Assembly: GCA_902601455.1 (NCBI GenBank)
Contig: CACKNC010000006.1
Location: forward strand, 6,875 to 70,874
Direction: 5' to 3'
DNA from: an uncultured Alphaproteobacteria bacterium
Lineage (GTDB): Bacteria; Pseudomonadota; Alphaproteobacteria; HIMB59; GCA-002718135
Length of the DNA stretch: 64,000 nucleotides
Every line of letters begins with the position of its first letter. Position 1 is the stretch's first letter. Positions 11,132 through 48,542 of the stretch are shown one piece after another. Made by a program: the position numbers and the translations under genes. Below the pieces are notes generated by a model. That model did not search any database. It saw nothing but the letters and a program-made list of their open reading frames with translations, and was not told the origin of the DNA.

Positions 11132-11143
11132 AAAAAAATAAAT

Positions 11144-11170
11144 AAAGAGCGGACTAGTTTCCGCTCTTTT
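11144..11170 (+). terminator. Intercistronic stem-loop plus T-run after the TRAP binding-protein gene
   Basis: AAAGAGCGG (11144-11152) pairs with CCGCTCTTT (11161-11169) across an 8-nt loop. T residues follow. Confidence 0.6.
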
Positions 11171-11189
11171 ATTCCTATAAAACAAAACA

Positions 11190-14528: not shown

Positions 14529-14607
14529 ATAACCTCACTTTAAAGTTGATAATTATCTTACTATAGCAATTTATAAATTTAATTAATAGATATTAAGTAA
14601 CACAAAA

Positions 14608-16650
14608 TTAAATATTTATTAAAAGTCTCAATGCATCATAAATCGCAGCATGGATATTTCGAGAAGAGACAGCATCACCAATTCTGAATAGATAAAAATG
14701 ATTATTATTATTTCTAATAATATTTTGTTGGGTACCGTTTATAAACTTAGCGTAATCAATTTCTCCTTGATTTTTTGAATCAGTTACAAGGTCAAAGTAC
14801 AATTCATCCAATGGTTTAACTCCATAATTAACAAATATTTGATCATATACTTTGTTGAATTTAAATTTTTCATCATAATCTGAGCCAAACAAAGCATTAA
14901 GTTTATTTCCCTCCAGTGAAACTGCCAATAATCTTTTAGCAATTGAATAGGTAATATTTTTATTTTGTAAATTTTTTATATAAGGCGTTAAATTCATTCC
15001 CATAATTTCTGATGAAATCAATCTATCAGGTGTCATAAATTCAACTTTAGCGCCTTCACTAATTGCAATTTCTGCTGACTGCATCGCAGTGTGATCACCT
15101 ACTTCATCGTAAATTAAAATATTTTCTGATAATTTGATATCTCCTGAAATAATGTCCCAACTTGTGTAAATATTTTCTAGCTCAGTTTTAGTTTCAAACA
15201 ATTCTAGGTTGGGTATTCCTCCCGTAGCAATTATTATTGTATCAGGCTTGTCTTCGATAATATCTTTTTTTTCTGCTAAAACATTAAAATTAAATTTAAC
15301 ATTTCTTTTTGTACATTGCTCCATCCTCCAGTCAATAATTCCCATCATATCTTTTCTTCTGTCCGATTTTGCACAAAGTCTTACTTGTCCTCCTGGATCA
15401 GGTGCTGCTTCAAAAACAATCACTTCGTGACCCCTCTCTGAAGCAATTCTTGCCGATTCAAGACCACCTGGTCCAGCTCCAACAATAGCAATTCTTTTCT
15501 TTGTTTTTGATTTAGTAATGATGTTTGGAAATTTTAATTCTCTTCCAGTTACAGCGTTATGAATACATAATGCTTCTTCTCCTTGATATATCCTATCTAA
15601 ACAAAAAGTGGCTCCCACACATGGTCTTATGTCATCTTCTCTTTTTTCTTTAATTTTTTTTACTATGTGTGGATCAGCTAAATGACCTCTAGTCATACCA
15701 ATCATATCAACTAGGCCATTTGAAATAGCGTATCTTGCCGTTGCAACATCGGAAATTTTTGATGCATGAAATATAGGTAAGTTTACTTCCTTTTTTATTT
15801 CTGCAGCAAATTCTAAATGAGGAGCACTTCTCATACCCTGTATTGGAATATGTTTAGTTAAGATTGGATCTGTATGTATTCTTCCTCGGTTAATATTTAG
15901 ATAATCTACTAAGCCTGAGTTCGATAAAATTTTTGCTGTCTCTAAACCCTCAGATTTTGTAATACCACCTTCTTCAACTTCATCAAAGACACAACGTATT
16001 CCAACAATAAATTCTTTTCCAACTTTTTTTCTAATTTCCGAAAGAACATCAATAGTAAACCGCAATCTGTTTTCAAAATTCCCTCCATATTCTGATTCTA
16101 ATTCATTGGTTAAAGGAGACATAAATTGCCCTATTAGATGACCTTGGGCTTCAAGTTCCACCCCATCCATACCACCTTCTTTCATTCTTTGTGCTGCATC
16201 ACCATATTCTTTTATAATTCTCTTAATATCCCAACTTTCTACAATTTTTGGGAAAGCTTTATGTGCTGGTTCACGATGTTTTCCAGATGATACAGAAGGA
16301 AGCCAATCTCCTTTACTCCAAGACGTTCTTCTTCCCAGATGGGTTAATTGAATCATTATTTTGCAATCCTGGTCATGGATAGCTGTAGTTAATTTTTTGA
16401 TCCAAGGAACTACTTCATCTTTGTAAACATGAATATTATCAAACGAAGGAGGGCTATCTTTTGAAACAACTGCAGATCCTGCTGTCATAGTCATAGCTAT
16501 TCCTCCTTTTGCTCTCTCCAAATGATAGGCTATATATCTGTCTTTTGGAAATCCATCTTCATTGTATGCTGGTTCGTGACTCGTAGTTATAATACGGTTT
16601 TTTAAATGAAGATTTTTTAGTTGAAAAGGTTCTAATAAAGCATCAACCAT
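14608..16650 (-). CDS. OYE-like FMN oxidoreductase fused to an FAD/NAD(P)-binding domain (2,4-dienoyl-CoA reductase / N-methylproline or dimethylglycine demethylase-like)
   Basis: 680 aa. The N-terminal TIM-barrel flavin oxidoreductase begins PFQLKNLHLKNRIITTSH. A central Cys region reads RPCVGATFCLDRIYQGEEALCIHN. The Rossmann motif is IAIVGAGPGGLESA. Confidence 0.8.
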   Translation of the reverse strand: MVDALLEPFQLKNLHLKNRIITTSHEPAYNEDGFPKDRYIAYHLERAKGGIAMTMTAGSAVVSKDSPPSFDNIHVYKDEVVPWIKKLTTAIHDQDCKIMIQLTHLGRRTSWSKGDWLPSVSSGKHREPAHKAFPKIVESWDIKRIIKEYGDAAQRMKEGGMDGVELEAQGHLIGQFMSPLTNELESEYGGNFENRLRFTIDVLSEIRKKVGKEFIVGIRCVFDEVEEGGITKSEGLETAKILSNSGLVDYLNINRGRIHTDPILTKHIPIQGMRSAPHLEFAAEIKKEVNLPIFHASKISDVATARYAISNGLVDMIGMTRGHLADPHIVKKIKEKREDDIRPCVGATFCLDRIYQGEEALCIHNAVTGRELKFPNIITKSKTKKRIAIVGAGPGGLESARIASERGHEVIVFEAAPDPGGQVRLCAKSDRRKDMMGIIDWRMEQCTKRNVKFNFNVLAEKKDIIEDKPDTIIIATGGIPNLELFETKTELENIYTSWDIISGDIKLSENILIYDEVGDHTAMQSAEIAISEGAKVEFMTPDRLISSEIMGMNLTPYIKNLQNKNITYSIAKRLLAVSLEGNKLNALFGSDYDEKFKFNKVYDQIFVNYGVKPLDELYFDLVTDSKNQGEIDYAKFINGTQQNIIRNNNNHFYLFRIGDAVSSRNIHAAIYDALRLLINI

Positions 16651-16658
16651 GTATTATT

Positions 16659-17858
16659 TTAATTTTTTGAAAAATCATTATCAATTAATGAGGTGGCTAC
16701 CCACTTATTAAAATGATGTGTTGGGTTATCAAGAGCAGGTGAAAAATTTCCACCATTGTAAACTGGAGAATTTCTTCCTTCCTGCATACCTTCAATAATA
16801 TTTAAATCTTCTGATTGAATACTATACCATTGATCATAATTCTGTTTTCTCAGTGATTTATATTTATCCCCTCGAGCTGCTTCTTCTCCAACATAATAAA
16901 TTTCCATATGTTCTATTGTAAAATTGTGTGCAGTAGGTTCCAACCAATAAGCATAATAATGATCTTTATGAATTCCTAACATAACATTTGGAAACAAAGC
17001 TACATATTCAGCATGTTCTTCTTTTTCTTTTGACCAGCCAGGAAAAGTTGGAAATTTTTCATTATTTTTAAATCTTGGATTATAAACAAGAGTCCCCTGA
17101 CCTGCAAAACGATTGGGCAAACCCTGAATATGATAGTGATCGTCAATTTTGGAATAAGCATTTAAACCAGGATGCACAAAAGGAAGATGATAACTCTCAC
17201 AGTAATTTTCTATTGCAAACTTCCAATTACATTTTGCTTCTAATTTAAAATATCCATAATCATTAGCATGACAAATCATTTGTTGATCTTCTTTACTCCA
17301 AAATGAAGACCATCTATCTTCAAGAGGCTTGATGTACTTTTTAAATGGTAATTCATTTTCAGAAATATTTATCATTATTAAATCTAACCAGATGTACGAT
17401 CTCACTTCTTTTAACCCACTTTTTGTTTTATCAAAATCGACGTGATGATGTTTATTTACACCTCCAAGATGGGGAGTAGCAACAAGTTTTCCTTCAAAGT
17501 CATATGACCAGGAATGATAGGGACATCTCATAACATTTTTAAGAGAGCAACTTTCCTGAATTAATTTATATCCTCGATGACTACAAACATTATGAAAAAC
17601 TCTAATTTTGTTTTTTTTATCTCTTACTATTATTAGAGGAATACCTAGTAAATCAAATGGCTTAGTATCTCCTGGATTTGGAAGTGAACTTGCTACACCA
17701 ATGGTAACCCATTTGTCTTCGAAGATTTTTTTACGCTCAATATTAGCGTAAGGTCCATTTAAATAACACTCATTTGGAAGTCCGTGTGCTTTTTCTATAG
17801 ACTCACTAACAACATTTAACTTTTCTTTATCGATGATTTTGTATATTTCTTTTTCCAT
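16659..17858 (-). CDS. Rieske [2Fe-2S] non-heme-iron oxygenase alpha-type subunit (GbcA/Stc2/CntA-like N-demethylating oxygenase candidate)
   Basis: 399 aa. The Rieske motif is CSHRGYKL...CPYHSWSY. The mononuclear iron region is ENYCESYHLPFVHPG. No reductase gene is adjacent. Confidence 0.8.
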   Translation of the reverse strand: MEKEIYKIIDKEKLNVVSESIEKAHGLPNECYLNGPYANIERKKIFEDKWVTIGVASSLPNPGDTKPFDLLGIPLIIVRDKKNKIRVFHNVCSHRGYKLIQESCSLKNVMRCPYHSWSYDFEGKLVATPHLGGVNKHHHVDFDKTKSGLKEVRSYIWLDLIMINISENELPFKKYIKPLEDRWSSFWSKEDQQMICHANDYGYFKLEAKCNWKFAIENYCESYHLPFVHPGLNAYSKIDDHYHIQGLPNRFAGQGTLVYNPRFKNNEKFPTFPGWSKEKEEHAEYVALFPNVMLGIHKDHYYAYWLEPTAHNFTIEHMEIYYVGEEAARGDKYKSLRKQNYDQWYSIQSEDLNIIEGMQEGRNSPVYNGGNFSPALDNPTHHFNKWVATSLIDNDFSKN

Positions 17859-17906: not shown

Positions 17907-18698
17907 ATGATTAAGAATAATGAATTGTTGCTTGAAATTTGTAAAATTTCTTTACTTGCTGGTGATGAAATTCTTCAAATTTATAATGATAAAATTGAGG
18001 TAGTTCAAAAAAAAGATCTCTCTCCATTAACCAAAGCAGATATTGCTTCTAATAGAATAATTCTGCGTTCATTAGAGGTTATAGATAATAGCATTCCAGT
18101 TTTAAGTGAAGAATCTCTTATAAATTGGAATGAAAGAAAAAAATGGAATAAATATTGGTTAGTTGATCCCTTAGATGGAACAAAAGAATTTATAAAAAAA
18201 AATGGTGAATTTACTGTTAATATTGCTTTAATAGAAAACAATAAACCAATTCTTGGAGTAATATACGTTCCTACAAAATCTACTTTGTATTTTGCTCAAC
18301 AAAATTTTGGATCTTTTAAAATTAATATTACTTCAGAACTAAAAAATCTTGATGGAGCAAAAAAAATATTTGTATCAAACCAAAAAATTATTCAACGTGT
18401 AATAGGTAGTCGATCTCATTCAAATCAAGATTTTGATGAATGGGTAAAAAATAATTTTCCTAATTCGTTAATTGTTCAAGCAGGAAGTTCATATAAATTT
18501 TGTTTAATTGCTGAAGGTTCTGCTGATATATACCCTCGATTTGGTCCAACTTCAGAATGGGATATAGCTGCTGGACATATAATAGTTAATGAGGCTGGCG
18601 GAAAAGTTAGAACATTTGATAATACTGATATAAAATATAACACAAAAGAGGATCTGCTTAATCCTCACTTTTATGCTATAGGCAAATTTAAAATTTAA
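17907..18698 (+). CDS. cysQ: 3'(2'),5'-bisphosphate nucleotidase
   Basis: 263 aa. Inositol monophosphatase-family motifs [17 protein letters not shown] and WDIAAG. It lies directly upstream of cysD. Confidence 0.85.
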
Positions 18699-18703
18699 AT
18701 ATT

Positions 18704-19603
18704 ATGAAATTATCACATTTAGCAAAACTAGAGTCTGAAAGTATTCATATTATTCGAGAAGTGGCATCTGAATTTGAAAATCCAGTAATGCTTTATTCGA
18801 TTGGTAAGGACTCTGCTGTAATGCTTCATTTAGCCTTAAAAGCTTTTTCTCCGGGAAAACTACCATTTAAATTATTGCACGTAGATACAACATGGAAGTT
18901 TAAAGAAATGATTAAATTTCGTGATGAAATAGTTAAAAAAAATGATTTAGATTTGATAGTGCACATAAACGATGAAGGAGTAAAAAATAATATAGGTCCA
19001 ATTACACATGGGTCAAAACTTCATACTGATGTGATGAAAACTCAAGCTTTAAAACAAGCTTTAAATAAATATAAGTTTGACGCTGCATTTGGTGGAGCTA
19101 GAAGAGATGAAGAAAAATCAAGAGCCAAAGAGAGAATATTTTCTTTTCGTGATGAAAATCATCATTGGGATCCTAAAAACCAAAGACCAGAATTATGGCA
19201 TTTATATAATACAAAAATTGATAAAGGCGAAAGTGTAAGAGTTTTTCCTTTATCAAATTGGACTGAATTAGATGTATGGCAATATATCTATCAAGAAAAA
19301 ATTGAAATTGTTCCTTTATACTTAGCTGCAATTCGTCCAATTATAAAAAGAGACAATCTTCTTCTTATGGTTGATGATAAAAGACTAGATGTCAGAGAAT
19401 CTGAAACTATTAAGAATAAGTTAGTGCGTTTTAGAACATTAGGTTGTTATCCTCTCACAGGTGCAATTGAGTCTAATGCAAAATCAGTTGAAGAAATTAT
19501 TTTAGAATTAATTCAAAGCAAAAACTCTGAAAGAGAAGGTAGAGCAATTGATAAAGATCAAATTGGTTCTATGGAAAAAAAGAAACAAGAAGGTTATTTT
19601 TGA
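18704..19603 (+). CDS. cysD: Sulfate adenylyltransferase subunit 2
   Basis: 299 aa. PAPS-reductase-fold N-terminus [12 protein letters not shown]...MLYSIGKDS, plus [18 protein letters not shown] and [13 protein letters not shown]. Confidence 0.9.
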
Positions 19604-21477
19604 TGGATTTAGATAAATTCTTTCAAGATCAAAATAAAAAGAAACAAGTTAAAATTTTAACTTGTGGATCAGTAGATGATGGTAAATCGACTTTATTAGG
19701 AAGACTGTTATTTGATTCTCAAAATATTTTTCTTGATCAAATGAATCAAGCAAAAATAGAAAGTGAAAAATATGGAACTCAAGGAAAAGAAATTGATTTA
19801 GCTTTGCTTGTTGATGGCTTGCAAGCTGAGCGAGAGCAGGGCATCACAATAGATGTGGCTTATCGTTATTTTGAGACATCAAATTGTAAATTTATTGTTG
19901 CTGATACGCCTGGTCACGAACAATATACTCGTAATATGGCAACGGGTGCCTCAAATTCTGATGTAGCTATAATATTAATAGATGCACAAAAAGGAGTATT
20001 AGAGCAAACAAGAAGACATAGTTTTATTGTCAGCCTTTTAGGTATTAAACATATTGTTGTCGCAATAAATAAGATGGATCTGGTAAATTATAATGAAAAT
20101 GTTTTTGAGACAATCCGTGATGAATACAAAGAATTAATTTCAAATTTTACTTTTACTACAATAAATTTTATTCCATTATCGGCTTTAAAGGGAGATAATA
20201 TATTTTCAAAATTTGAGAATACTAATTGGTACAAAGGACCAACGCTAATTGAAGCATTAGAGAAAACTGATGTTTTAGATTCGAGTCGAGATAATAAATT
20301 CAGTTTTCCAGTTCAATGGGTAAATAGATCAAGTGCAAACTTCAGAGGTTATTCAGGCACAATAACGGATGGAAAAATTTCAACAGGAGAATTAATAACC
20401 ACAACATCAAGTAATAAGCAAATTTCAGTGAAAAATATTTACGGACCTCAAGGAGAGTTGAGCGAAGCATATAGCGGACAAGCAATTACATTAACCTTAA
20501 GTGATGAATTAGATATTTCACGAGGAGATATTATTCTCTCAACAAAAAATGATCAGATAATGAAAGCAAATCAATTTGCCTCTCATTTAATTTGGATGGA
20601 TCAAGAACCTATGTTACCTGAGAGAAATTATATTTTTCGTTTTAATAATTCTTACATTAATGGAAAAATAACTGATTTAGTTCACAGTATAAATGTTAAT
20701 TCTTTTGAAGAAGTTGCTTCTAAAAAATTAAATTTAAATGATATTGCTTATTGTAAAGTGGCCATTGATAAAATGCATGGTATTAGTTCGTATTCTAATA
20801 ATCAAAAGTTAGGAAGTTTTGTTATAATTGATCCTTATAGTAACAAAACAATTGGGGTAGGCATGATTGATCATGCTCTTCGTCGATCTAGCAATATTTC
20901 TTGGCATGAAATGTCAATTAATAAAAAAACTCGATCTGAATTAAATTCCCAAAAGCCATGTGTTGTATGGTTTACTGGATTATCAGGTTCTGGTAAGTCA
21001 ACAATTGCTAATATTTTAGAACAAAAATTACACACCGCAGGAAAGCGAACTTATTTATTAGATGGTGATAACGTACGTCATGGATTGAATAAAGATTTAG
21101 GATTTACTGACACTGATAGGGTAGAAAATATTCGTCGTGTTGCAGAAGTATCCAAGCTAATGGTTGATGCTGGATTAATAACATTAGTCTCATTTATTTC
21201 ACCTTTCAAATCAGAAAGACAAATGGCTAAAGATCTATTATCTTCAGATGAGTTTTTTGAAATTTTTGTAAGCACTTCACTTGAAGAATGTGAAAAGCGA
21301 GATCCAAAAGGATTGTATAAAAAAGCAAGAGCAGGAGAGTTGAAAAACTTTACAGGTATAGATTCTTCTTATGAAGAACCAGAAAATCCCGATCTTGTTT
21401 TAGATACAAATTCAACAAATGCTGAAGAACTAGCAGATCAAATTATTAATTTTTTGCAAGTTAATAAAATTATCTAG
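19600..21477 (+). CDS. cysNC: Bifunctional sulfate adenylyltransferase subunit 1 / adenylylsulfate kinase
   Basis: 625 aa. GTPase motifs [14 protein letters not shown] and NKMD. The C-terminal APS kinase has the P-loop [11 protein letters not shown]. There is a 4-nt overlap with cysD. Confidence 0.9.
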
Positions 21478-22760
21478 TTTTGAAAACCATATTTTCTCAA
21501 ACGAGCATCGCCTGTTCGTGCATGCGCTTCCATTCCTTCTAATCTTGAAATTCTAGCTGCGGCTGCACCTACTTCTTTGTTTGATTCTTTAGTCATACGT
21601 TGAAAAGTTACAGTTTTAATAAATTTTCCTACAAATAAACCGCCAGTATATTTAGCAGCGCCTTTTGTGGGAAGTATATGATTTGTGCCGGAGCATTTAT
21701 CACCGTAGGCAACAGTTGTTTCTTCACCGAGAAATAATGACCCATAATTTTTAAGTTTCTGTAACCACCAATCTAGGTTTTCAGCCTGAACTTCTAAATG
21801 TTCAGGTGCGTACTCATCACTAACTTTACATAACTCTTCATTAGTATCACAAAGAACAACTTCTCCATAATCACGCCATGCTGCATCTGCATTATTTCTT
21901 GATGTTTCAGGTAACTCTGCAATAAGTTCAGGTACTCTTTTCATCACAAAATCACATAATGACTTATCTGTAGTGTATAGCCATGCAGGTGAATTAGGAC
22001 CATGCTCTGCTTGACCGACAAGATCAACAGCGATCATTTCTTTATCAGCAGTATGATCGGCAATAATTCCAATTTCAGTAGGACCAGCAAATAAATCGAT
22101 TCCAACTTTTCCGTATAAAATTCTTTTTGCTTCTGCGACATACTGATTACCAGGACCAACAATCATATCAACTTCCGGATTACCAAAACATCCATAAGCA
22201 AAAGCACCAATCGCTCCAATACCCCCACAATTCATAATTACATCCGCTCCACATAAATTAGCTGTGTATATAATTATTGGGTTTGCTCCATTTTCATCTT
22301 TTGGAGGACTAGCAGCAATAACATTTTTAACACCTGCAACTTTTGCTGTAGTAATACTCATTATAGCTGAGGCAATATTATTATATCTTCCACCAGGAAC
22401 ATAACAACCAACACTGTTAACAGGAATTAATTTTTGACCAGCAAACAGACCCGGCGATAATTCAACTTCAAAATCATTATTAAGATGTTTTAATTGATGT
22501 TCTGCAAAACTACGAACTCTATCATAAGAAAATTGAACATCATCTTTAACCTTTTGATCTAATGATTTTATAACTTCTTCAATTTTTTCTTGAGAAATAA
22601 TTACATCACCTTCATATTTATCAAACTTGCGAGAAATTGCTTTAATACCCTCGTCTCTTTTAGATTCAATTTCATTGAGAACGTCCTGAACCTTTTGTCT
22701 TGTTTCAACCTCATCAGAAGAGGCAGTTTTATTTGCTTTTTTGATATATGAAATTGTCAT
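21474..22760 (-). CDS. Histidinol dehydrogenase-family NAD-dependent 4-electron alcohol dehydrogenase (housekeeping HisD or DHPS-3-dehydrogenase HpsN-like)
   Basis: 428 aa. HisD-family blocks [47 protein letters not shown] and LEGMEAHA. It is translationally coupled (4-nt overlap) to an uncharacterised NTF2-like gene, not to his genes. Confidence 0.75.
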
Positions 22761-23854
22761 TGCTGCTCCTTAATTAATTCAAATACGTCTATATCTAATT
22801 GCTTGAGAATGTGCACTATGTCAATTGGTACCCAGTTCTCTCTAATTAAACCTTCGTGGTGATGATAAAAATCCATAACACGCATTGTTACTGATTTACC
22901 AGTTGGCTCATAACCAAGCCAGTCTTTTGCTCCATGAATCGCATCAATACTATGCCATCCACCAGTCATAGAATAATTTCCATCTCCAATTTCAACATAA
23001 TGTCCAATTTTCCAATAATCTCTATTCTTAAATGTCATACGGAAGGGAAGTTGATGATGATTAACAAAACCTTCTAATCCTCTTGCAGTCCCAATACCAC
23101 TTGGTCCGTACCACATCATTTTTTTATGCCAGAATTTTTTTTGAGGATGGTTAATAAGTTTGTCTCTGACATACGAATGATCAGCATTTGGATCACACTC
23201 TGGTTTAATATTTAGACTTCTCTGCATTGTAAGAGCTTGTTCTAGTGATGATTTAGATAATTGTTCATCAATATTTTCAAATATAGAACCATCTCCTGAA
23301 ATTGAATTTGCCCATAAACCTTCTGCGCCGTTGGATTTATTAATCGGCCAAAATCCAGCTTGTCTTATAAAATCCATAACATCTAATAAAATATGAGAAT
23401 GAATAATTTTACCATCCTTAATTTCGTGAGCTTCACACATCCTCAGATGTATTGTTTTATTATTTGTTGGAATACCTAACCAAGAATTTTTATAAGTTCC
23501 TGTTAGAAGACTTATAGTTGAAACAAATACTTTATCTTGAAAACTCCCACCTAAGACTAAACAATCCCTTCTTTCTAAATCAGTAAAAGAATTTTTAATT
23601 GGTAACCAAAGTTTATGATAAATTTCATCAATACCACTTATATTGTTAACTGGATGAAAACATTTTAATTCTGCATTTGGATGATAGGCATTAATAATAT
23701 TTTTTTCTAAATTTTTGCTATCAGACTCAACAATATTTTTTAATAATTGTTTTATTTTTTTTTTATTCTTTATATTCTCAGAAGGATCTAAATTGATATT
23801 TACAATATCAGGATTAACCTTAGGGCCGGTGTTAAAATTTTCTATTTTTACCAT
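22757..23854 (-). CDS. Tandem NTF2-like (SnoaL/ester-cyclase-like) protein, function unknown; paralog of 34456-35529
   Basis: 365 aa. It shares long blocks with the 34456-35529 product. Examples are DLERRD, WYGPSGIGTARGLEGFVNHHQLPF vs WYGPAGIGTGRGIAGFRHWHQIPF, and GLIRENWVPIDIVHILKQLDIDVFE vs GLIRENWVLIDLLDIYRQINVDVFD. Confidence 0.6.
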   Translation of the reverse strand: MVKIENFNTGPKVNPDIVNINLDPSENIKNKKKIKQLLKNIVESDSKNLEKNIINAYHPNAELKCFHPVNNISGIDEIYHKLWLPIKNSFTDLERRDCLVLGGSFQDKVFVSTISLLTGTYKNSWLGIPTNNKTIHLRMCEAHEIKDGKIIHSHILLDVMDFIRQAGFWPINKSNGAEGLWANSISGDGSIFENIDEQLSKSSLEQALTMQRSLNIKPECDPNADHSYVRDKLINHPQKKFWHKKMMWYGPSGIGTARGLEGFVNHHQLPFRMTFKNRDYWKIGHYVEIGDGNYSMTGGWHSIDAIHGAKDWLGYEPTGKSVTMRVMDFYHHHEGLIRENWVPIDIVHILKQLDIDVFELIKEQQ

Positions 23855-23886
23855 TTTTTGTTTTTAGTTACTCACATCACACATAT

Positions 23887-23927
23887 ATTATTGAATTGAT
23901 TTATTCAATAATATGAATAATATTCAT
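23887..23927. promoter_or_regulatory. Cluster of inverted repeats built from ATTGAAT/ATTCAAT half-sites in a divergent promoter region
   Basis: ATTATTGAAT (23887-23896) and ATTCAATAAT (23903-23912) are exact reverse complements. They are followed by TGAATA-A-TATTCA (23914-23926). Confidence 0.5.
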
Positions 23928-23958
23928 TATAAATGAATAAATAAGAGTTAATTATAAT

Positions 23959-24930
23959 ATGACAATAGATATAAATACTCGACTAGCTAGATTTGAAGAT
24001 TTAATTCCAAGTAAAGTTCCTTTTGTCGAGGGAAAATTAAAAGGACATCAAGATAGATCAAACTATTCTATCGTGGGTCCAGGTGTGAGTGAAGATTCCA
24101 AACAGAATGTTAAAATAGCAGAAGCTCATGGTTTTAATATTGGTGCGGTAAGTGCAGCATCAATGAATGGGTCTGGTCTGCATAGCCATACAACAGCTGA
24201 AGTTTTTTTAATTTTTTCTGGTTCTTGGCGTTTTTATTGGGGTTCTGATGGTAAAGAGGGGGAGGTAATCCTTCACAAAGGTGATGTTGCCTCATTCCCA
24301 ACAAACATGTTTAGAGGGTTTCAAAACATCAGTGATGATGAAGCATATATGGTCGTAGTTCTTGGAGAGAATGATCCGGGTGTTATCACATGGACTCCAA
24401 AAGTCATTAAAGATGCGAAAGACACAGGTATGGTTTTATTAAATGACAATTCTTTAATCGATTTAGATAAACAAAAAATCCCCGAAGGAAAAAAAGCACT
24501 AGAACCTCTTCATGAAAATGATCTTCACCAATTTGATCATTACACATCAGATGAAATTGAAAAATTTGTCATCAGATCTTCAGACTCTCAAAGATATATT
24601 GAAGATGATGAACATTTTAATTCTAATTCTATAATTAACTATTTAGATGAATTAAGTCTTCATGAGAAAACATTTAAACCTCATATACCGCATCATACTG
24701 GATTTGGATTATCCTTGCTTACAGGTAAGGACGCGCATATTCATTCTTACCAATCTAAAAAATCTGAGGCATTCCTTTGTTTAGATGGCAAATGGGAAAT
24801 TACTTGTGATGATCAAAAAGTAATTATTGGCCCAAGAGATACCTTTTCTGCACCTAAAAATTCTATTAGAAGTGTTAAGCAAATAAGCGACGAAGTGGGT
24901 AGCCTTTTTTTAGTTAGACAAAAAAATTAA
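23959..24930 (+). CDS. Bicupin protein, function unknown
   Basis: 323 aa. The N-terminal cupin has metal motif 1 GLHSHTTAEVFLIFSG and motif 2 GDVASFPTNMF. A second cupin-like half has HIHSYQSKKSEAFLCLDG. Confidence 0.65.
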   Translation: MTIDINTRLARFEDLIPSKVPFVEGKLKGHQDRSNYSIVGPGVSEDSKQNVKIAEAHGFNIGAVSAASMNGSGLHSHTTAEVFLIFSGSWRFYWGSDGKEGEVILHKGDVASFPTNMFRGFQNISDDEAYMVVVLGENDPGVITWTPKVIKDAKDTGMVLLNDNSLIDLDKQKIPEGKKALEPLHENDLHQFDHYTSDEIEKFVIRSSDSQRYIEDDEHFNSNSIINYLDELSLHEKTFKPHIPHHTGFGLSLLTGKDAHIHSYQSKKSEAFLCLDGKWEITCDDQKVIIGPRDTFSAPKNSIRSVKQISDEVGSLFLVRQKN

Positions 24931-24944
24931 TTTATAGGAAAATA

Positions 24945-25928
24945 ATGAAGGGTTTTGATAGTAAATATAAAGATTTGCCTGATTACATTTTAAAAATCAC
25001 ATACCAGATTTGGGAAGAAAAAGATGTTGAATCTATAAATCAATACTACGCAAAGGGTATGCCAACTCGATCTCCCCAAGGTGTTATTTATGGTCCTGAA
25101 CCCGTTGTTAAGGCGACTTATGCTACACTAAAAGAATTTCCTGATAGACAATTATTAGGGGAGGATGTGATTTGGATTGGAAATGATGATGAGGGTTACT
25201 TCTCTTCACATCGTATTTTTACTCGAGCAACCCATACTAATTTAGGCGTTTATGGTGAACCTTCTGGAAAAAAATTATCTTACCGTGTTATTGCTGATTG
25301 TGCATGTAGAAATAATCAAGTTTATGATGAGTGGTTAGTGCGTGATCAGGGTGCCATTGTTAGGCAGCTTGGACTTGACCCTAAAAAATATGCTCATAAG
25401 CTAATTCAAGACGAGGGAGGAATCGAAAAATGTGCTGTTCCTTTTAATCTAGATACACCAAATGATGTTCCAGCAGATGGAATATACATAGCTCCTAATA
25501 TTTCAAAAGAAAACATAGGAGTAAGATACGCAAAAATTTTAAAACAAATTTTTAATAATGAAAAAAATGCTATTGAAAAAAATTATGATAGGGCGATTCA
25601 ACAAGAACAACCTGGAGGATTTACTGGGCATGGAAGAGAAGAGGTAGCTACCTTTTGGAATACTTTTATGTCTGCTTTTCCAGACTCTAAATTCACAATT
25701 GAACACATAAGTTATACCGAAGAAAAAGATCAAGCAAAAAAAGCAGCAATAAGATGGTCTTTAGTGGGGTCTCATTCGGGTAAAGGGAATTTTGGAAACC
25801 CTTCAAATACTCCAATTTATGTAATGGGTATTTCTCATGCTGAATTTGGTCCTCGTGGAATTAAAAATGAATGGGTATTATTTGATGAAACAATTATCTG
25901 GAAGCAGATATTAATGAAAACTGGTTAA
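24945..25928 (+). CDS. Tandem NTF2-like (SnoaL/ester-cyclase-like) protein, function unknown
   Basis: 327 aa in two halves, each with SnoaL-like features (ITYQIWEEKDVESINQYY...NQVYDEWLVRDQGAIVRQLGL and second half FWNTFMSAFPDSKFTIEH...IKNEWVLFDE). Confidence 0.55.
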   Translation: MKGFDSKYKDLPDYILKITYQIWEEKDVESINQYYAKGMPTRSPQGVIYGPEPVVKATYATLKEFPDRQLLGEDVIWIGNDDEGYFSSHRIFTRATHTNLGVYGEPSGKKLSYRVIADCACRNNQVYDEWLVRDQGAIVRQLGLDPKKYAHKLIQDEGGIEKCAVPFNLDTPNDVPADGIYIAPNISKENIGVRYAKILKQIFNNEKNAIEKNYDRAIQQEQPGGFTGHGREEVATFWNTFMSAFPDSKFTIEHISYTEEKDQAKKAAIRWSLVGSHSGKGNFGNPSNTPIYVMGISHAEFGPRGIKNEWVLFDETIIWKQILMKTG

Positions 25929-25931
25929 TTT

Positions 25932-27062
25932 ATGAATTCTTCAATTCTTACTACTCACGTTGGAAGTCTTCCTCGATCAACAGAATTATCTGAATTACTT
26001 TTTGCCAAAGATAAAAAAGAAAATATTGATCAATCACTCTTTAATGACACTGTAAAAAAAAATGTAGATGAAGTTGTAAAACGGCAACTTGATGTCGGTA
26101 TTGATGTTGTAAGTGATGGAGAGATGAGCAAGATAAGTTATGCTACTTATGTTAAGGACCGCATAAAAGGTTTTTCTGGTGAGAGTGAAAGAAGAGCGCC
26201 AGCTGATCTCGATGCTTTTCCAGAGTATAAAACCAAAATTGCTAATAGCGGAGGAACTCCAACTTATACAAGGCCATGTTGTACTAGCGAGTTAGAAATT
26301 CAAGATACTCAATCATTGAAGAATGACATAAAAAATTTAAGTGACTCTTTAAACTCTAATAATCATTCCAAAGCATTTATGAATGCCGCTTCACCAGGGG
26401 TTATAAATGTTTTTATGCCAAATAAATTTTATAAAGATGATGATACTTATTTAGAAAAATTATCTGAAGTTATGTCAGTTGAATATAAATTAATAACGGA
26501 TAGTAATATACATTTACAATTAGACTGCCCAGACTTAGCCCTAGCAAGGCATATGAATTATAAGGATTTATCTGAGGAAGAATTTTTAAATAGGGCCGAG
26601 GTACAAATAGAAGCTCTTAATAATGCATTAGTTGGTATTTCTCCTGAACTTATTAGAATGCATATATGCTGGGGTAATTATGAAGGTCCACATACTTTTG
26701 ATATTGGTTTAGAAAAAATATTACCAATAATTTTGAAGGCAAATTTAAAATATTTACTTATTGAATCTTCAAATCCAAGACATGCACATGAATGGAAAGT
26801 TTTTGAAAATATTAAATTACCACAAGATAAAGTCATTGTGCCTGGCGTTATTGACTCGACTTCAAATTTTGTTGAACACCCAGAAGTTGTTGCCGATCGG
26901 TTAAAACAATTTTCTACTTTTGTGCCAAAGGAACAAATTATGGCTGGCACAGATTGTGGTTTTAGTACTTTTGCTGGATTTGGAAAAGTTGATGAAAAAA
27001 TTTGTTATGAGAAATTAATTTCGTTAGTTAAGGGTACTCAAATAGCATCTAAAACGATTTGA
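25932..27062 (+). CDS. MetE C-terminal-domain-like Zn-dependent methyltransferase (cobalamin-independent methionine synthase family)
   Basis: 376 aa. The N-terminus is TTHVGSLPRS. Zn-ligand motifs are MHICWGN (H-x-C) and GTDCGFS. Confidence 0.7.
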   Translation: MNSSILTTHVGSLPRSTELSELLFAKDKKENIDQSLFNDTVKKNVDEVVKRQLDVGIDVVSDGEMSKISYATYVKDRIKGFSGESERRAPADLDAFPEYKTKIANSGGTPTYTRPCCTSELEIQDTQSLKNDIKNLSDSLNSNNHSKAFMNAASPGVINVFMPNKFYKDDDTYLEKLSEVMSVEYKLITDSNIHLQLDCPDLALARHMNYKDLSEEEFLNRAEVQIEALNNALVGISPELIRMHICWGNYEGPHTFDIGLEKILPIILKANLKYLLIESSNPRHAHEWKVFENIKLPQDKVIVPGVIDSTSNFVEHPEVVADRLKQFSTFVPKEQIMAGTDCGFSTFAGFGKVDEKICYEKLISLVKGTQIASKTI

Positions 27063-27074: not shown

Positions 27075-27734
27075 ATGATTAAAAATATTATATTCGATTT
27101 TGATGGTGTTCTTGTAGATAGTGAAACTATAATTTTAAAGGCATTTATTAAATATATGCAAGAAAGTGAAATAAAAACAAATGAAAAAGAGTTTGCAAAT
27201 TTAGTAGGTAAACCAACTGTTGAAGTAATTGATATTTTATCAGAAAAATATTTTCCAAAAGATAAAAAAAAATTTTCTGATAATATTATGAATATTGCCT
27301 CTAATATTTATAAAAAAGAATTAAAAAAAGTGGTTGGTGTGGAGGAATTTTTAGAAAAATCTAAACATAATTTGTACATTGGTTCTAACAGTATGAAGAA
27401 TAGAATAATTGATGGACTTGAAAGAGTAGGGCTAGAAAAATACTTTAATCAGACTCACATATACTCTTTAGATATAGTTGATAATCCAAAACCACATCCT
27501 GATATTTATTTAAAAGCAGTTAGTGATAATAACCTTATAATCGATGAAACAATTATTATAGAAGACAGTGTAGTAGGTGTAAATGCTGGCAAAAATGCCA
27601 AAGTAAAAGTTATTGGTTTAACAGCTGGTAGTCATTGGCATAAAAATAGAGATGAAAAAGAGTTAATAAATGCAGGAGCTATTGCTTCTGCTAATAACTA
27701 TAATAAAATAAAACAAATTATAGAAAGTCTGTAA
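27075..27734 (+). CDS. HAD-superfamily hydrolase (beta-phosphoglucomutase/phosphatase-like)
   Basis: 219 aa. Motif I is IIFDFDGVLVDSE, with lysine KPHPDIY and motif IV IIIEDSVVGVNAG. Confidence 0.8.
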   Translation: MIKNIIFDFDGVLVDSETIILKAFIKYMQESEIKTNEKEFANLVGKPTVEVIDILSEKYFPKDKKKFSDNIMNIASNIYKKELKKVVGVEEFLEKSKHNLYIGSNSMKNRIIDGLERVGLEKYFNQTHIYSLDIVDNPKPHPDIYLKAVSDNNLIIDETIIIEDSVVGVNAGKNAKVKVIGLTAGSHWHKNRDEKELINAGAIASANNYNKIKQIIESL

Positions 27735-27793: not shown

Positions 27794-27800
27794 GTTAAAA
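27751..27800 (+). repeat. Direct repeat copy 2 (downstream of the HAD gene)
   Basis: ttcgttagtcaagggcacgcaaatagcgtctaaaaagatttgagttaaaa; the period to copy 1 is 731 bp. Confidence 0.9.
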
Positions 27801-28487
27801 TAAAAAATTACTAACAATTTTATTAAAAGTTTTTGGCTTCTCTAGCATTACAAAATGAGAAGAATTTTTAATTTCTTTATAAACTGAATATTTTATTTTC
27901 TTATTTAATTCATTGTTCATAATATTTGAGGATAGTTTATCGTTTTTGCCACGAATAATTAGAGTTTTTGATACAATCTTATTTAGCTTTTTTAGTTGAT
28001 TGGGTCTGTTTACAATCAAATTAGTTTGGTTTAAAAAAGTTTTATACCCTAATTTTTTAGCCATTGAGTAAATAGTATTTTGGTATGATGAATTTTCCAA
28101 ATCTTTATCAGCAAAATAGGAACTATAGTTTGTTTGATAAAATAATTTTGCAAAGTTATTTTTATTTAAGGTTATTAATGACTTTTCTAAAAGCAACTTT
28201 CTTTTTTGTGAAATATGTCTTGCATTAGTACCTATTAAAACTAATTTATCTAATATTTCTGGATACTCGATAGCTAATTTTATTGCAATGAATCCTCCCA
28301 TTGAAAAACCAATAACGGAAATTTTTTTTTTATTTTTGTTTACAATTTTTTGTACAGCATCATCTACTGTAGAAATATTTTTTAGAGAAGGAATGGAAAC
28401 ACTATATTTTTTTTTTAAAATAGATATTTGTGTATCCCATATGTTTTTGTCACACATATATCCTGGAATCAAAACTATTTTAGACAA
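27795..28487 (-). CDS. Alpha/beta-fold hydrolase
   Basis: 230 aa with nucleophile elbow GFSMGG and a late His (NSSHFVMLEKP). Confidence 0.75.
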   Translation of the reverse strand: MSKIVLIPGYMCDKNIWDTQISILKKKYSVSIPSLKNISTVDDAVQKIVNKNKKKISVIGFSMGGFIAIKLAIEYPEILDKLVLIGTNARHISQKRKLLLEKSLITLNKNNFAKLFYQTNYSSYFADKDLENSSYQNTIYSMAKKLGYKTFLNQTNLIVNRPNQLKKLNKIVSKTLIIRGKNDKLSSNIMNNELNKKIKYSVYKEIKNSSHFVMLEKPKTFNKIVSNFLF

Positions 28488-28490: not shown

Positions 28491-29483
28491 CTATCTTGTT
28501 GTTTTGCGATAAACAAATTTGCCTTGAAGCAAGTAATTAATGGGCTCGAATTCAGGGTCTTTTAAATTATCATCAATAATTTGCGTAATAAGTTTAGACA
28601 TTTTTTGAATAGGTTGTCTGACTGTAGTTAAATTATAGGAGTGCCAATTTGCTGTTGATATATCATCATAACCAATAATTTCTATGTGCTTTGGCACACT
28701 TAACTTTGTGTGCTGCTTTATGTAATCCAAACATCCAAATGCCATTATATCATCAGCACAAAATACTGCTGTAATATCATTTTTCAAAAGTTTTTTTGTT
28801 GACTCAAAACCTCCTTCATATGTAAAATTTCCTCTTTCAGAAAATAATTTTATTTTTTTAGAATTTTTGATATGATTTTTAAAACCTTTACATCTTTCAT
28901 TACTTACAAATGATCCTTTAGGGCCTTCTATAATTCCAATCTTAGTGTGTCCGTTATTAATAAAATGTTCAGAAGCTGCTTCCCCTCCGTATCTATGATC
29001 ACAAGTTACTGAACTTAAAGTTGGTATTTTCCAATTTCTATTAAAAGCGATGAGTTGAATCTGCTTATTTAAACAATTTTCAACAAAAGCATCTGTCGGC
29101 TTTGTAGCAGAAACTATAGCAATGAGTTTTTCTTTGAGATTAGGCTGTATTAAGTTGTCATCAAGTTCTTCACCATCATCAGTTGTGATTAGTAAGACTC
29201 TATACCCTGAGTGTCTTAATGCCTCGTGTAATTCGATTAAAACTTCAGGGTAATATCTATTAGTAATATATGGCAAAATTACTCCAACCAATCCTCCCTC
29301 ATCTAGATTAGAAGTACTGGCAGAATAGGACTGAGGTTTATAACCCAACTTTTTGGCAGCCTCGATAACCCTTAATTTTGTTCTACTAGAAATGCTGGCA
29401 CCCTTTGTAAAACCCCTTGAAACAGCAGATTGAGAAACACCAGCTAATTTAGCTACTTCTTGAGAAGTTGCATTTTTTTTCAT
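28491..29483 (-). CDS. LacI-family transcriptional regulator
   Basis: 330 aa. The N-terminal HTH is ATSQEVAKLAGVSQSAVSRGF. The C-terminus is a periplasmic-binding-protein-like sugar-binding core. Confidence 0.9.
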   Translation of the reverse strand: MKKNATSQEVAKLAGVSQSAVSRGFTKGASISSRTKLRVIEAAKKLGYKPQSYSASTSNLDEGGLVGVILPYITNRYYPEVLIELHEALRHSGYRVLLITTDDGEELDDNLIQPNLKEKLIAIVSATKPTDAFVENCLNKQIQLIAFNRNWKIPTLSSVTCDHRYGGEAASEHFINNGHTKIGIIEGPKGSFVSNERCKGFKNHIKNSKKIKLFSERGNFTYEGGFESTKKLLKNDITAVFCADDIMAFGCLDYIKQHTKLSVPKHIEIIGYDDISTANWHSYNLTTVRQPIQKMSKLITQIIDDNLKDPEFEPINYLLQGKFVYRKTTR

Positions 29484-29497
29484 TTTTCCACCAATAT

Positions 29498-29517
29498 TTA
29501 TTCAATATATTGAATAA
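29498..29517. promoter_or_regulatory. Perfect 20-bp palindrome TTATTCAATATATTGAATAA between the LacI gene and the CUT1 operon
   Basis: Read directly; it is its own reverse complement. It is followed at 29518-29537 by the related TTATTCA-ttttat-TGAAT. Confidence 0.6.
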
Positions 29518-29579
29518 TTATTCATTTTATTGAATTTATATGTAATATCAATAATATTTTAATTATTATGGGGATTCAT

Positions 29580-30794
29580 ATGAAAAAATTATTTATACTA
29601 TTTTCAGTTATTGCATCTTTTTCCTTAGTTGGTTTAAGTTCTGCAAAAGCTTGTGAAAATAAAAACGATGTTCCATTAACATCTCTAACTTCTGGATTTG
29701 ACGCATGGAAAGTTGTTACGAGTGCTATGGAAGAATGTGGTAATTACACACCAACACTTGATCAAGAATACAAAGACAAAATCGTTGCAGCACTTGATAG
29801 TAATCCATCACAGTATGCCTTAGCGGGTGTATCTGCATCTACAAATGTTGCAGTTCTTGATGCAGGACTGACTAGACCACTTGATGATTTGATTGCTAAG
29901 CATGGTGGTGCTTTACAAGATAACCAAAAGGTTACAATTAATGGTCAAGTCATGGCAATTGCTATGATGACAAATGCTCAACATTTATTTTACAGAGAAG
30001 ATATTTTCAATGATCTGGGTATTGACGTGCCAACCACTTACGATGAAGTGATCAAAGCTGCTAAAGTTATTCAAAATGCTGGAGTAGTAGATTATCCTTT
30101 GGGAGCTACATTTAAAGTTGGTTGGAATTTGGGTGAAGAATTTGTAAACATGTATTTAGGTTATGCTGATACTTTCTTTGATGGAAATATGCCTGCTGTA
30201 AATAATGCAAATGGTTACGAAACTCTTAAAATGCTAAAAAAACTTACTGAATATATGGATCCAGAATATTTGAATTCTGATTCTACATACGTTCAACAGC
30301 AATTCCAACAAGGTAAAATTGCAATGGCAAATTTATGGGCTTCTAGAGCTGGCGCAATGGATAATGCTGAAGAGTCAAGCGTTGTCGGATTAGTTAAATT
30401 TGCATCAGCACCTGCTGCGAAAAAAGGAGGAAAGCCTGCTTCTACTCTTTGGTGGGATGGAGTTGTTATTGCAAAAAATATTTCTGATGAAGAAGCGGAA
30501 GCTGCATTTAAACTAGCTATGGTTGGTTTAGATCCTGCAAATTTAGGTGCAAGCCCTGAGGCCGCACCATGGATTTCAAATGCTTTTGATCCAGCGCCTT
30601 CAAATATTGGAGCTGTTATGACTGCAAAAGGAGGGGCTGCCCCTTATCCTGCTTCCGCACAAATGAGTACTTTGCATGGAGTTTTAGGTAACGTGCTTCC
30701 TGACTATTTAACTGGTGCTGCAACTGCTAAAGCTACACTCGAAAAAATAGAAGCAGATTATATAACTGCTGCAACAGAAAAAGGACTTTTATAA
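29580..30794 (+). CDS. ABC transporter substrate-binding protein, family 1 (CUT1 sugar/polyol type)
   Basis: The ORF track starts at 29568, but ATG 29580 (GGGGA 5 nt upstream) gives the lipobox-free signal peptide MKKLFILFSVIASFSLVGLSSAKA. The product is about 404 aa, typical of SBP_bac_1, and is followed by MalF/MalG-type permeases. Confidence 0.85.
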   Translation: MKKLFILFSVIASFSLVGLSSAKACENKNDVPLTSLTSGFDAWKVVTSAMEECGNYTPTLDQEYKDKIVAALDSNPSQYALAGVSASTNVAVLDAGLTRPLDDLIAKHGGALQDNQKVTINGQVMAIAMMTNAQHLFYREDIFNDLGIDVPTTYDEVIKAAKVIQNAGVVDYPLGATFKVGWNLGEEFVNMYLGYADTFFDGNMPAVNNANGYETLKMLKKLTEYMDPEYLNSDSTYVQQQFQQGKIAMANLWASRAGAMDNAEESSVVGLVKFASAPAAKKGGKPASTLWWDGVVIAKNISDEEAEAAFKLAMVGLDPANLGASPEAAPWISNAFDPAPSNIGAVMTAKGGAAPYPASAQMSTLHGVLGNVLPDYLTGAATAKATLEKIEADYITAATEKGLL

Positions 30795-39934: not shown

Positions 39935-39944
39935 TTAAATTTAT

Positions 39945-42516: not shown

Positions 42517-42519
42517 AAC

Positions 42520-48537: not shown

Positions 48538-48542
48538 TATTT

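Follow-up and report, generated by a model that had tools for sequence, protein, structure and literature searches.

The HisD-family dehydrogenase encoded at positions 21474–22760 of the window (the whole 64,000-nucleotide stretch of contig CACKNC010000006.1 analyzed here, from an uncultured alphaproteobacterium, with a G+C content of 31%) is a divergent member of the HpsN branch and not a HisD. Together with SnoaL proteins, a bicupin, a MetE-like protein, and an importer, it quite probably forms one LacI-controlled regulon, and it is itself rather likely to be a member of the encoded pathway and not a bystander. The regulon is a repressor-controlled, sugar-type catabolic set built from enzyme families without a characterized member. 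This gene set is present in almost all SAR11 bacteria of the ocean and in some bacteria of soil.

Compared with solved structures, the dehydrogenase scores 520 bits to HpsN of Cupriavidus pinatubonensis (CpHpsN, PDB code 8V35) and 509 bits to the (R)-2,3-dihydroxypropane-1-sulfonate (DHPS) dehydrogenase 8WWE, whereas the best true HisD reaches 248 bits. A joint alignment gives 55% identity to both CpHpsN and 8WWE and 33% identity to Brucella HisD. Catalytic Glu-318 and His-319 (motif PEHLE) as well as zinc-binding Asp-352 and the adjacent Lys-353 (motif GDK) are kept. The residue after the zinc-binding aspartate differs between the clades, with GDK in the HpsN clade and GDY in HisD, and in CpHpsN this lysine hydrogen-bonds the sulfonate (PMC11382572). 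A second discriminating feature is the loop G-R-Y-A/S-H, which sets HpsN apart from HisD and ends in His-126, a zinc ligand in the resting enzyme and a sulfonate binder in the complex (PMC11382572). The window dehydrogenase reads G-R-Y-N-N at this position and does not match the HisD-type substrate loops either (G-S-A-P-L or G-T-A-S-Y; in general, G-S/T-A-P/S-L/Y). On these grounds, we would not class the enzyme as HpsN, because the defining His-126 is replaced by asparagine.

A preliminary description of this DNA had held that the sequence cannot separate HisD from HpsN. The scores (520 versus 248 bits), the GDK motif in place of GDY, and the published loop do separate them. The HpsN-like identity proposed in the same description stands insofar as the enzyme belongs to the HpsN clade and is not a housekeeping hisD product, but it does not extend to a bona fide HpsN.

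The kinetics of a SAR11 homologue bear on the substrate. The enzyme of strain HTCC1002, which is 57% identical to reference HpsN, has a Km of 106 mM for R-DHPS and a kcat/Km of 1.7e-3 per mM per s, with histidinol used only 2.2-fold less efficiently; by comparison, the Km of the Ruegeria enzyme is 1.07 mM (PMC11131964). The authors of that study take the kinetics as promiscuity, but they equally suggest that DHPS is not the native substrate. SAR11 hpsN serves as a DHPS marker (PMC11131964), and IMG labels the clade-Ia-type homologues sulfopropanediol 3-dehydrogenase. Sulfolactaldehyde is also reported to be a competent HpsN substrate (PMC12814064).

The gene block around the dehydrogenase comprises the following features.

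21474–22760, minus strand: HisD-family dehydrogenase, 428 aa (PF00815, 447 bits; TIGR00069, 433.8 bits)
22757–23854, minus strand: tandem SnoaL/NTF2 protein “SnoA,” 365 aa (PF07366, two stretches)
23855–23958: divergent promoter region with the palindrome TGAATAATATTCA at 23914–23926 and a perfect inverted repeat with 12-nt arms at 23885–23914
23959–24930, plus strand: bicupin, 323 aa (PF07883, two stretches)
24945–25928, plus strand: tandem SnoaL protein “SnoB,” 327 aa (PF07366, two stretches), 14 nt after the bicupin gene
25932–27062, plus strand: MetE-like zinc protein, a single-domain TIM barrel, 376 aa (PF01717, 59 bits), 3 nt after SnoB
27075–27734, plus strand: HAD-IA hydrolase 1, 219 aa (PF13419, 107.6 bits)
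27795–28487, minus strand: α/β hydrolase, PcaD/BioH-like, 230 aa, downstream of the LacI gene in the same orientation
28491–29483, minus strand: LacI-family repressor, 330 aa (PF00356 and Peripla_BP_1/3/4)
29484–29567: divergent promoter region with the perfect 14-bp palindrome TGAATAATTATTCA at 29511–29524
29568–30794, plus strand: substrate-binding protein of a CUT1 importer (PF01547)
30843–31862 and 31862–32995, plus strand: the two CUT1 importer permeases (PF00528)
32997–33653, plus strand: HAD-IA hydrolase 2, 218 aa
33689–34456, plus strand: short-chain dehydrogenase/reductase (SDR), 255 aa (PF13561, 206 bits)
34456–35529, plus strand: third tandem SnoaL protein “SnoC,” 357 aa (PF07366, two stretches)

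The preliminary description had confined the block to the five genes between 21474 and 27062. Their coordinates, overlap, and gaps agree with the open reading frame (ORF) calls, and Pfam confirms the family of each, but the block runs further, to the LacI gene, the CUT1 importer, the two HAD hydrolases, the SDR, the α/β hydrolase, and SnoC. The statement that other his genes are absent also holds: none turned up when every one of the 61 window ORFs that reach 100 aa or more was scanned against Pfam or NCBIfam. The dehydrogenase and SnoA are probably co-translated, because their genes overlap by 4 nt. All features of a LacI-regulated CUT1 sugar operon are present, namely LacI, palindromes in the promoters, an SBP_bac_1 protein, and two permeases. 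No gene for an ATP-binding cassette (ABC) ATPase was found in the block, and the clade-Ia-type locus L003 has one beside SnoA.

To place the block in context, related loci were collected by a SnoA-profile search of GTDB species genomes, which yielded at least 599 pattern matches and at least 579 confirmed relatives. The locus set consists of the best 80 of these at least 579 relatives (L004–L083), all of SAR11 type, and eight further loci obtained by other routes. The window itself derives from a SAR11 (Pelagibacterales) genome; its nearest relatives are from the same group, both isolates and single-cell genomes, with AG-313-N13 (L031) as the closest. A HisD-family gene is kept beside the SnoaL/bicupin core in 78 of the 80 loci, and both exceptions stop at a contig edge. 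Conservation of the neighbors with the dehydrogenase had been named beforehand as a test, and the arrangement is non-chance because of this recurrence. HAD hydrolase 2 is present at 49–88% identity in many, but not all, related loci. In two loci (L084, 13111–15779; L085, 13111–15790), the MetE-like gene and LacI are separated by three extra SnoaL genes, of which two code for tandem-domain proteins and one for a protein of 139 aa. With SnoA and SnoB, the number per locus rises to five, leaving aside any SnoC outside the fetched span, which is striking for a streamlined genome.

Both divergent promoters contain AT-rich palindromes built from TGAAT/ATTCA half-sites. The pattern TGAATA-N1-2-TATTCA has only two sites in the window: one at 23914, flanked by SnoA and the bicupin gene, and one at 29511, flanked by LacI and the importer. 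Of its 64 occurrences in 1.48 Mb of SAR11 loci, 62 are located within the two homologous intergenic regions. Every one of the 43 loci with LacI, SnoA, and bicupin genes carries the pattern, and 25 of the 32 loci without LacI in the fetched span lack it. Judging from this distribution, the palindrome looks like the operator to which LacI would bind. An earlier operator guess, TTGAATAWWATTCAA with two mismatches allowed, gave 9 hits with 8.7 expected and was no better than chance. We assign the genes on both sides to one regulon because the palindrome is shared by both divergent promoters.

The HisD-family dehydrogenase at this locus has three forms, distinguished by the loop read from alignment-anchored extraction.

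Type II: loop G-K-F-P-M, 66 loci, exactly between SnoA and CysNC
Type I variant (the window type): loop G-R-Y-N-N, 8 loci, same slot and same strand as SnoA
Type I canonical: loop G-R-Y-A-H, 9 clade-Ia-type loci including HTCC8051, opposite strand

In L003, the ABC ATPase gene separates the canonical type I gene from SnoA. A loop G-R-Y-T-G seen at first in clade-Ia-type loci was a regular-expression artifact, and alignment-anchored extraction gives the canonical G-R-Y-A-H. Type II shares 47% identity with the window dehydrogenase and scores 401 bits to HpsN versus 255 bits to HisD. Its pocket has methionine or leucine at the His-126 position and Val-Ile after the conserved lysine. Both the window enzyme (433.8 bits) and type II pass the TIGR00069 hisD cutoff of 243.8 bits, and annotation pipelines will therefore name both histidinol dehydrogenase.

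The DNA on the two sides of the dehydrogenase/SnoA junction has different closest relatives. Right of 22770, the window is 94.3% identical to L031, a type II carrier. Left of 22794, it is 86.4% identical to L005, a carrier of the variant, for which the value on the right is just 74.6%. Across genomes, the variant protein keeps 93–97% identity, compared with only 65–71% for the neighboring SnoA proteins. The breakpoint at the junction (22770–22794) marks a recent and precise swap of paralogues, as the flank identities switch there and the variant is better conserved than the adjacent SnoA; the swap looks like an allele exchange by homologous recombination. Type II is the ancestral partner of the module and the window dehydrogenase a replacement, because type II paralogues accompany the module in Telluria and Bacillus.

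Outside SAR11, the module was found in distant phyla. In the betaproteobacterium Telluria beijingensis, genes for a major facilitator superfamily (MFS) sugar transporter, a TonB receptor, LacI, an HpcH/HpaI aldolase, three tandem SnoaL proteins, a HisD-family enzyme, an SDR, a bicupin, and an α/β hydrolase adjoin one another. The HisD-family protein there belongs to type II; it shares 60% identity with its SAR11 type II counterpart and has the loop G-K-Y-P-L. Bacillus sp. ISL-18 combines a CUT1 ABC importer, SnoaL, two HisD-family genes, a bicupin, an SDR, LacI, an α/β hydrolase, and an HpcH aldolase. Its two adjacent HisD-family paralogues (L089, 7170–9907) have the loops G-R-F-P-L, with SDK, and G-R-Y-P-M, with GDK (GDKVIGTNH, as in Telluria type II), which hints at two successive alcohol-to-acid oxidations or at two stereoisomers. 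A minimal set in Brevibacillus centrosporus consists of LacI, bicupin, α/β hydrolase, MFS, and HpcH genes. The MetE-like family occurs in the bicupin neighborhoods of two metagenome-assembled genomes, one gammaproteobacterial and one of the Azospirillaceae, and in one of them its gene adjoins that of an HpcH aldolase.

Full-length identities to the window proteins amount to 24–37% for the bicupins, SnoaL proteins, SDRs, and LacI repressors and to 18–26% for the α/β hydrolases. SnoB is 36% identical to Telluria SnoaL324 and 34% identical to Bacillus SnoaL411, and SnoC is 36% identical to Telluria SnoaL335. The window LacI shares 32% identity with the LacI of the Telluria cluster, and the window SDR shares 37% with that of the Bacillus cluster. 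Homologues of the α/β hydrolase adjoin the bicupin gene in Telluria, Bacillus, and Brevibacillus. The HpcH aldolases of the non-SAR11 clusters are closest to GarL and HpaI, well under the cutoff. Full-text literature searches (SnoaL/cupin/HisD/HpcH; sulfoquinovose with cupin or NTF2) returned no account of the module. The suggestion that the partner genes form a conserved block not yet described is thus borne out, as the block recurs in SAR11 loci, Telluria, and Bacillus. The HpsN-clade identity itself is already known; new are the variant without His-126, type II as the regular partner, the swap in situ, the LacI operator, and a module that extends from SAR11 to Bacillus.

Structure prediction of the bicupin and the NTF2 protein, which had been suggested as a check, was carried out with AlphaFold2 (AF2) and Foldseek; it gave generic bicupins for the one and single NTF2 domains or Lsd19 for the other, and no function follows. 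Sequence searches of solved structures with the bicupin, SnoA, and the MetE-like protein likewise gave generic family matches only. In the bicupin, the N-terminal barrel has invariant His-75, His-77, and Glu-81, with Arg-119 in place of the motif-2 histidine, and the C-terminal barrel is degenerate, with the His-x-His lost in divergent members. The AF2 model has a pLDDT of 71.6, and its Foldseek matches are generic bicupins with a TM-score of about 0.5. The family has 704 representatives when clustered at 50%, and a profile search finds over 7,900 proteins. The quercetinase and oxalate-decarboxylase bicupins share the two-barrel fold, but the window bicupin does not have their 3-His(+Glu) site.

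The SnoA model (pLDDT 81) consists of two NTF2 domains and best matches IdmH, the Lsd19/MonB epoxide hydrolases, and ChaU at 10–18% identity; SnoA has 1666 homologues at E ≤ 1e-5. Its nearest structures are thus polyketide cyclases and two-domain epoxide hydrolases, and Lsd19/MonBI-MonBII and the SnoaL-type cyclases share its two-domain NTF2 architecture. However, the identity to these proteins is 10–18%, the TM-score for the whole protein is about 0.3, and there is no polyketide context.

The MetE-like protein keeps the zinc motifs H-x-C (HICWGN), IESS, and DCGF, as well as GSLPR, DGE, and D-x-P. It shares the zinc motifs with MetE, but it has a single domain and scores far under every methionine-synthase equivalog cutoff (best NCBIfam match, 99.6 bits; cutoff, 406). 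Similar to the short MetE-like zinc alkyltransferases (core MetE), it is a single TIM barrel of ∼375 residues with H-x-C, Glu, and Cys; epoxyalkane:coenzyme M transferase is presumably another short MetE-like zinc alkyltransferase of this kind. Unlike these, it is embedded in a sugar-type catabolic cluster, and its family is sometimes found next to an HpcH aldolase.

Among the other partners, HAD hydrolase 1 resembles sugar-phosphate phosphatases, below every equivalog cutoff. The α/β hydrolase resembles enol-lactonases and esterases and is a candidate lactonase or esterase. The SDR resembles glucose 1-dehydrogenase and aldose 1-dehydrogenases, KduD, and gluconate 5-dehydrogenase. HpsO and sulfoquinovose dehydrogenase were considered for it and rejected, as neither is among its top 60 PDB hits, all of which are generic SDRs. 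The nearest solved relatives of the importer binding protein are sugar binders, with SmoF, a binder of sulfoquinovosyl-glycerol, in third place at 44 bits. SmoF was discarded as a guide to the ligand, as its scores with the binding proteins (44–69 bits) lie behind or beside those of ordinary sugar binders and do not discriminate. Another SAR11 version of the window binding protein shares 39% identity with it. A systematic ligand screen in HTCC1062 included the orphan sugar-type binding proteins SAR11_0266 and SAR11_0271, one of which could not be expressed and the other of which had no high-affinity ligand (PMC11485210); their orthology to the window binding protein is unproven.

Beyond the block, the window constitutes a sulfonate island that encodes Xsc, a TRAP transporter, CysQ-CysD-CysNC, Pta, an aminotransferase similar to Tpa, alanine dehydrogenase, and ComD/ComE. 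Family scans confirmed Xsc (942 bits), ComD and ComE (both just above the NCBIfam cutoffs), and Pta, as noted in the preliminary description. These genes and the TRAP system lie 12–30 kb from the dehydrogenase, the immediate partners of which are the SnoaL and bicupin genes.

The block looks like a unit that imports and degrades a sugar-like solute and not like one for plain DHPS oxidation. Our preferred reading, held tentatively, is that the regulon handles such a solute and that the dehydrogenase oxidizes an anionic hydroxy-alcohol or hydroxy-aldehyde fragment, in this window probably sulfolactaldehyde or DHPS, which would feed ComDE, Xsc, and Pta; we infer every enzyme role and both substrates. 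The regulon would consist of a dehydrogenase–SnoA operon, a bicupin–SnoB–MetE-like–HAD operon, and an importer–HAD–SDR–SnoC operon under LacI control. Its overall logic would be oxidative, non-phosphorylative, and Entner–Doudoroff (ED)-like. The CUT1 importer would take up the sugar-like solute, the SDR would oxidize it to a lactone, the α/β hydrolase would open the ring as a lactonase or esterase, and the bicupin and SnoaL proteins might isomerize or dehydrate the product. In the non-SAR11 versions, the HpcH aldolase would then release pyruvate and a hydroxy-aldehyde. The HisD-family enzyme would oxidize an α-hydroxy alcohol or aldehyde bearing an anionic group to the hydroxy-acid, with zinc- and NAD-dependent chemistry leading from primary alcohol through aldehyde to carboxylate. 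In the window, the flow may run from sulfolactaldehyde or DHPS through sulfolactate, sulfopyruvate, and sulfoacetaldehyde to acetyl-phosphate and sulfite.

A sulfonate is proposed as the anionic group because of the polar Asn-Asn and Lys pocket, the 55% identity to HpsN, and the presence of Xsc, ComDE, and Pta in the window. That the substrate in this window is sulfonated is nonetheless doubtful. The role in DHPS or sulfolactaldehyde oxidation put forward in the preliminary description keeps the support of the Xsc/ComDE/Pta island, but it is weakened by the loss of His-126, by the Km of 106 mM of the HTCC1002 homologue, and by the hydrophobic loop of the paralogue that is the usual partner.

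Several further points weigh against the preferred reading. The asparagine at the His-126 position is shared by all eight close relatives. The type II pocket, with methionine or leucine and Val-Ile, argues against a sulfonate in the generic pathway. The sulfolactaldehyde derived from sulfoquinovose is the S enantiomer (PMC9594981), and HpsN is R-specific (PMC12814064). Family scans of the window block found no HpcH aldolase, IlvD/Edd dehydratase, or glycosidase, and no sulfonate-handling gene lies within 10 kb in the Telluria, Bacillus, and Brevibacillus clusters. No role in the scheme falls to the MetE-like protein or to either HAD hydrolase; the intact zinc site of the former would presumably suit thiol alkyl transfer, which has no place in it. 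A separate sulfo-EMP-like block (EMP, Embden–Meyerhof–Parnas) is already present in the window (51414–63594). Finally, SAR11 genomes are highly syntenic, and adjacency within SAR11 alone is weak evidence.

What the regulon degrades might instead be a carbohydrate, polyol, or sugar acid without a sulfonate group. In that case, the HisD-family enzyme would act on a non-sulfonated hydroxy-alcohol or aldehyde, for example a fragment of the glyceraldehyde/glycerate or 3,4-dihydroxybutyrate type or the CH2OH terminus of a 2-keto-3-deoxy acid, and the proximity to Xsc in SAR11 would reflect synteny, not function. The non-SAR11 clusters, with their sugar-type transporters, LacI, and GarL/HpaI-like HpcH aldolase and without sulfonate genes, speak for this alternative, as do the binding proteins that resemble trehalose/maltose and other sugar binders and the type II residues at the His-126 position and after the conserved lysine. 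We nevertheless consider it somewhat less likely than the preferred reading. The sole characterized members of the clade that are not HisD act on C3 sulfonates (DHPS, sulfolactaldehyde, and cysteinolate), and the conserved Lys-353 implies an anionic group. Moreover, the paralogue that occupies the slot in the window has a polar Asn-Asn pocket and is 55% identical to real HpsN, and in the clade-Ia-type SAR11 loci the sole neighboring paralogue is a canonical G-R-Y-A-H HpsN.

Alternatively, the dehydrogenase could be an ordinary stand-alone HpsN that converts DHPS, imported by the TRAP transporter (10034–13132), to sulfolactate, with unrelated SnoaL, bicupin, and MetE-like neighbors. SAR11 does take up DHPS by means of a TRAP binding protein (PMC13335735), and the window also encodes Xsc, ComDE, and Pta. 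The enzyme is 55% identical to two characterized HpsN proteins, with Glu-His, the zinc-binding Asp, and Lys-353 kept, and its clade-Ia-type homologues bear the IMG name sulfopropanediol 3-dehydrogenase. Against these points stand the asparagine at the position of His-126, the 4-nt overlap with SnoA together with the shared LacI-type operator, and a slot that is otherwise occupied by type II, which accompanies the module in distant phyla. The HTCC1002 homologue (Km, 106 mM; kcat/Km, 1.7e-3 per mM per s for R-DHPS, 2.2-fold above histidinol) also fits such a role poorly. We consider this alternative unlikely.

It is improbable that the regulon constitutes a new, non-orthologous route for a sulfosugar (such as sulfoquinovose or sulfoquinovosyl-glycerol) in SAR11. 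No gene-level evidence favors a phosphonate (2,3-dihydroxypropylphosphonate), methylthio-sugar, ascorbate/hydroxypyrone, or epoxide reading, each of which was considered on chemical grounds only. The chance that the dehydrogenase is the genuine histidinol dehydrogenase of the genome, as its TIGR00069 score would have it, is negligible in view of 33% identity to HisD versus 55% to HpsN, GDK and not GDY, G-R-Y-N-N and not G-S/T-A-P/S-L/Y, the lack of his genes in the 64 kb, and its interchangeability in situ with type II, itself closer to HpsN.

Two further features of the island flank the block on its left.

10034–13132: TRAP (tripartite ATP-independent periplasmic) transporter
17907–21477: CysQ, CysD, and a fused CysN/C, for synthesis of 3′-phosphoadenosine 5′-phosphosulfate (PAPS) and as phosphatase of 3′-phosphoadenosine 5′-phosphate (PAP)

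The CysQ/CysD/CysNC genes adjoin the block and are kept there in many SAR11 loci, including L002 and L084. No sulfotransferase or PAPS reductase gene was found near them. The SAR11 lineage is generally held to be without assimilatory sulfate reduction. At 14151–17858, the window encodes a Rieske oxygenase α subunit (399 aa), a 680-aa old yellow enzyme (OYE)-type flavoprotein with a pyridine-nucleotide-disulfide oxidoreductase domain, and a CMD-family protein. The flavoprotein is one that we take to resemble DgcA/trimethylamine dehydrogenase. Homologues of the Rieske subunit and the OYE-type flavoprotein occur beyond CysQ in several related loci.

On the other side of the block, a taurine-type module (36434–40922) comprises Pta, a Tpa-like aminotransferase of class III, alanine dehydrogenase, and a hydrolase of the arginase family; one may speculate that the latter releases taurine from a guanidino-sulfonate. 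At 41464–50518, a second, more canonical single-domain MetE-like gene (350 aa; PF01717, 142 bits) abuts a sulfatase gene (513 aa), followed by an Opp-type ABC transporter with an unusually long binding protein of 683 aa. The separate block at 51414–63594 contains a mutarotase (aldose 1-epimerase), a PfkB kinase, ComD/ComE, two 2-hydroxyacid dehydrogenases, a GFO/IDH/MocA oxidoreductase, and a second CUT1 importer. It also encodes a LacD/YihT-type aldolase (323 bits) and a protein whose sole NCBIfam hit is the sulfoquinovose isomerase SftI (294.6 bits, below the cutoff of 700). From its gene content, this block is a sulfo-EMP-like hybrid. A 2026 review describes Pelagibacter as a consumer of short-chain sulfonates only (PMC13436972).

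These findings bear on the use of SAR11 “hpsN” genes and transcripts, which widely serve as a marker for open-ocean DHPS turnover. The locus has three forms, two of them without the sulfonate-binding histidine, and all three are tied to a LacI-controlled uptake and catabolism module of which the literature searches returned no account. If the sulfosugar reading were true, the most abundant ocean heterotroph would be a primary degrader of one of the largest organosulfur pools, and “hpsN” counts in marine omics would report a sulfosugar pathway, not DHPS use. The module takes about 1% of a streamlined genome. Identifying its substrate would assign a function to four enzyme families without a characterized member and to an orphan SAR11 importer, and it would correct interpretations of carbon and sulfur flux. 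The defined operator lets the repressor serve to find the true substrate, and Telluria, Bacillus, and Brevibacillus are culturable carriers of the module with easy genetics. Among SAR11 cultures, HTCC8051 and nBUS strains have the block.

Compared with HpsN (C. pinatubonensis 8V35; 8WWE), the window dehydrogenase has the same fold, clade, Glu-His pair, zinc-binding Asp, and GDK lysine, and genes for the steps downstream of sulfolactate lie in its island. However, it does not have His-126, shares a transcript and a LacI-type operator with a tandem SnoaL gene, can be swapped with a paralogue with a hydrophobic pocket, and is found without hpsO, hpsP, or an hpsKLM operon. With HisD it shares the Pfam/TIGRFAM family and the four-electron chemistry, whereas it is only 33% identical and lacks the HisD substrate loop, GDY, and the his context. 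The L-cysteinolate dehydrogenase of Bilophila (PMC12814064) shows that enzymes of the HpsN clade accept further C3 sulfonates in which C2 bears an amino or hydroxy group. It keeps all substrate residues of CpHpsN and sits with CuyA, CuyB, and CuyC, none of which is present here.

The sulfo-ED pathway (Pseudomonas putida SQ1, Rhizobium) proceeds through an SDR, a lactonase, a dehydratase, a PF03328 aldolase, and a sulfolactaldehyde dehydrogenase (PMC9594981). None of the sulfo-ED families PF08450, PF00920, PF03328, or the aldehyde dehydrogenase-type sulfolactaldehyde dehydrogenase was detected by family scans of the window block. The module differs further in that it has no sulfoquinovosidase and that its SAR11 versions lack the aldolase and include the MetE-like protein and the HAD hydrolases. 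In its logic, however, the module is similar to sulfo-ED, with a LacI-type regulator, an ABC importer, an SDR, a lactone hydrolase, an enzyme that forms an α-hydroxy acid, and, in the Telluria and Bacillus versions, a PF03328 aldolase. The lactonase, dehydratase, and sulfolactaldehyde dehydrogenase steps would be filled by the non-homologous α/β hydrolase, the bicupin and SnoaL proteins, and the HisD-family enzyme, respectively.

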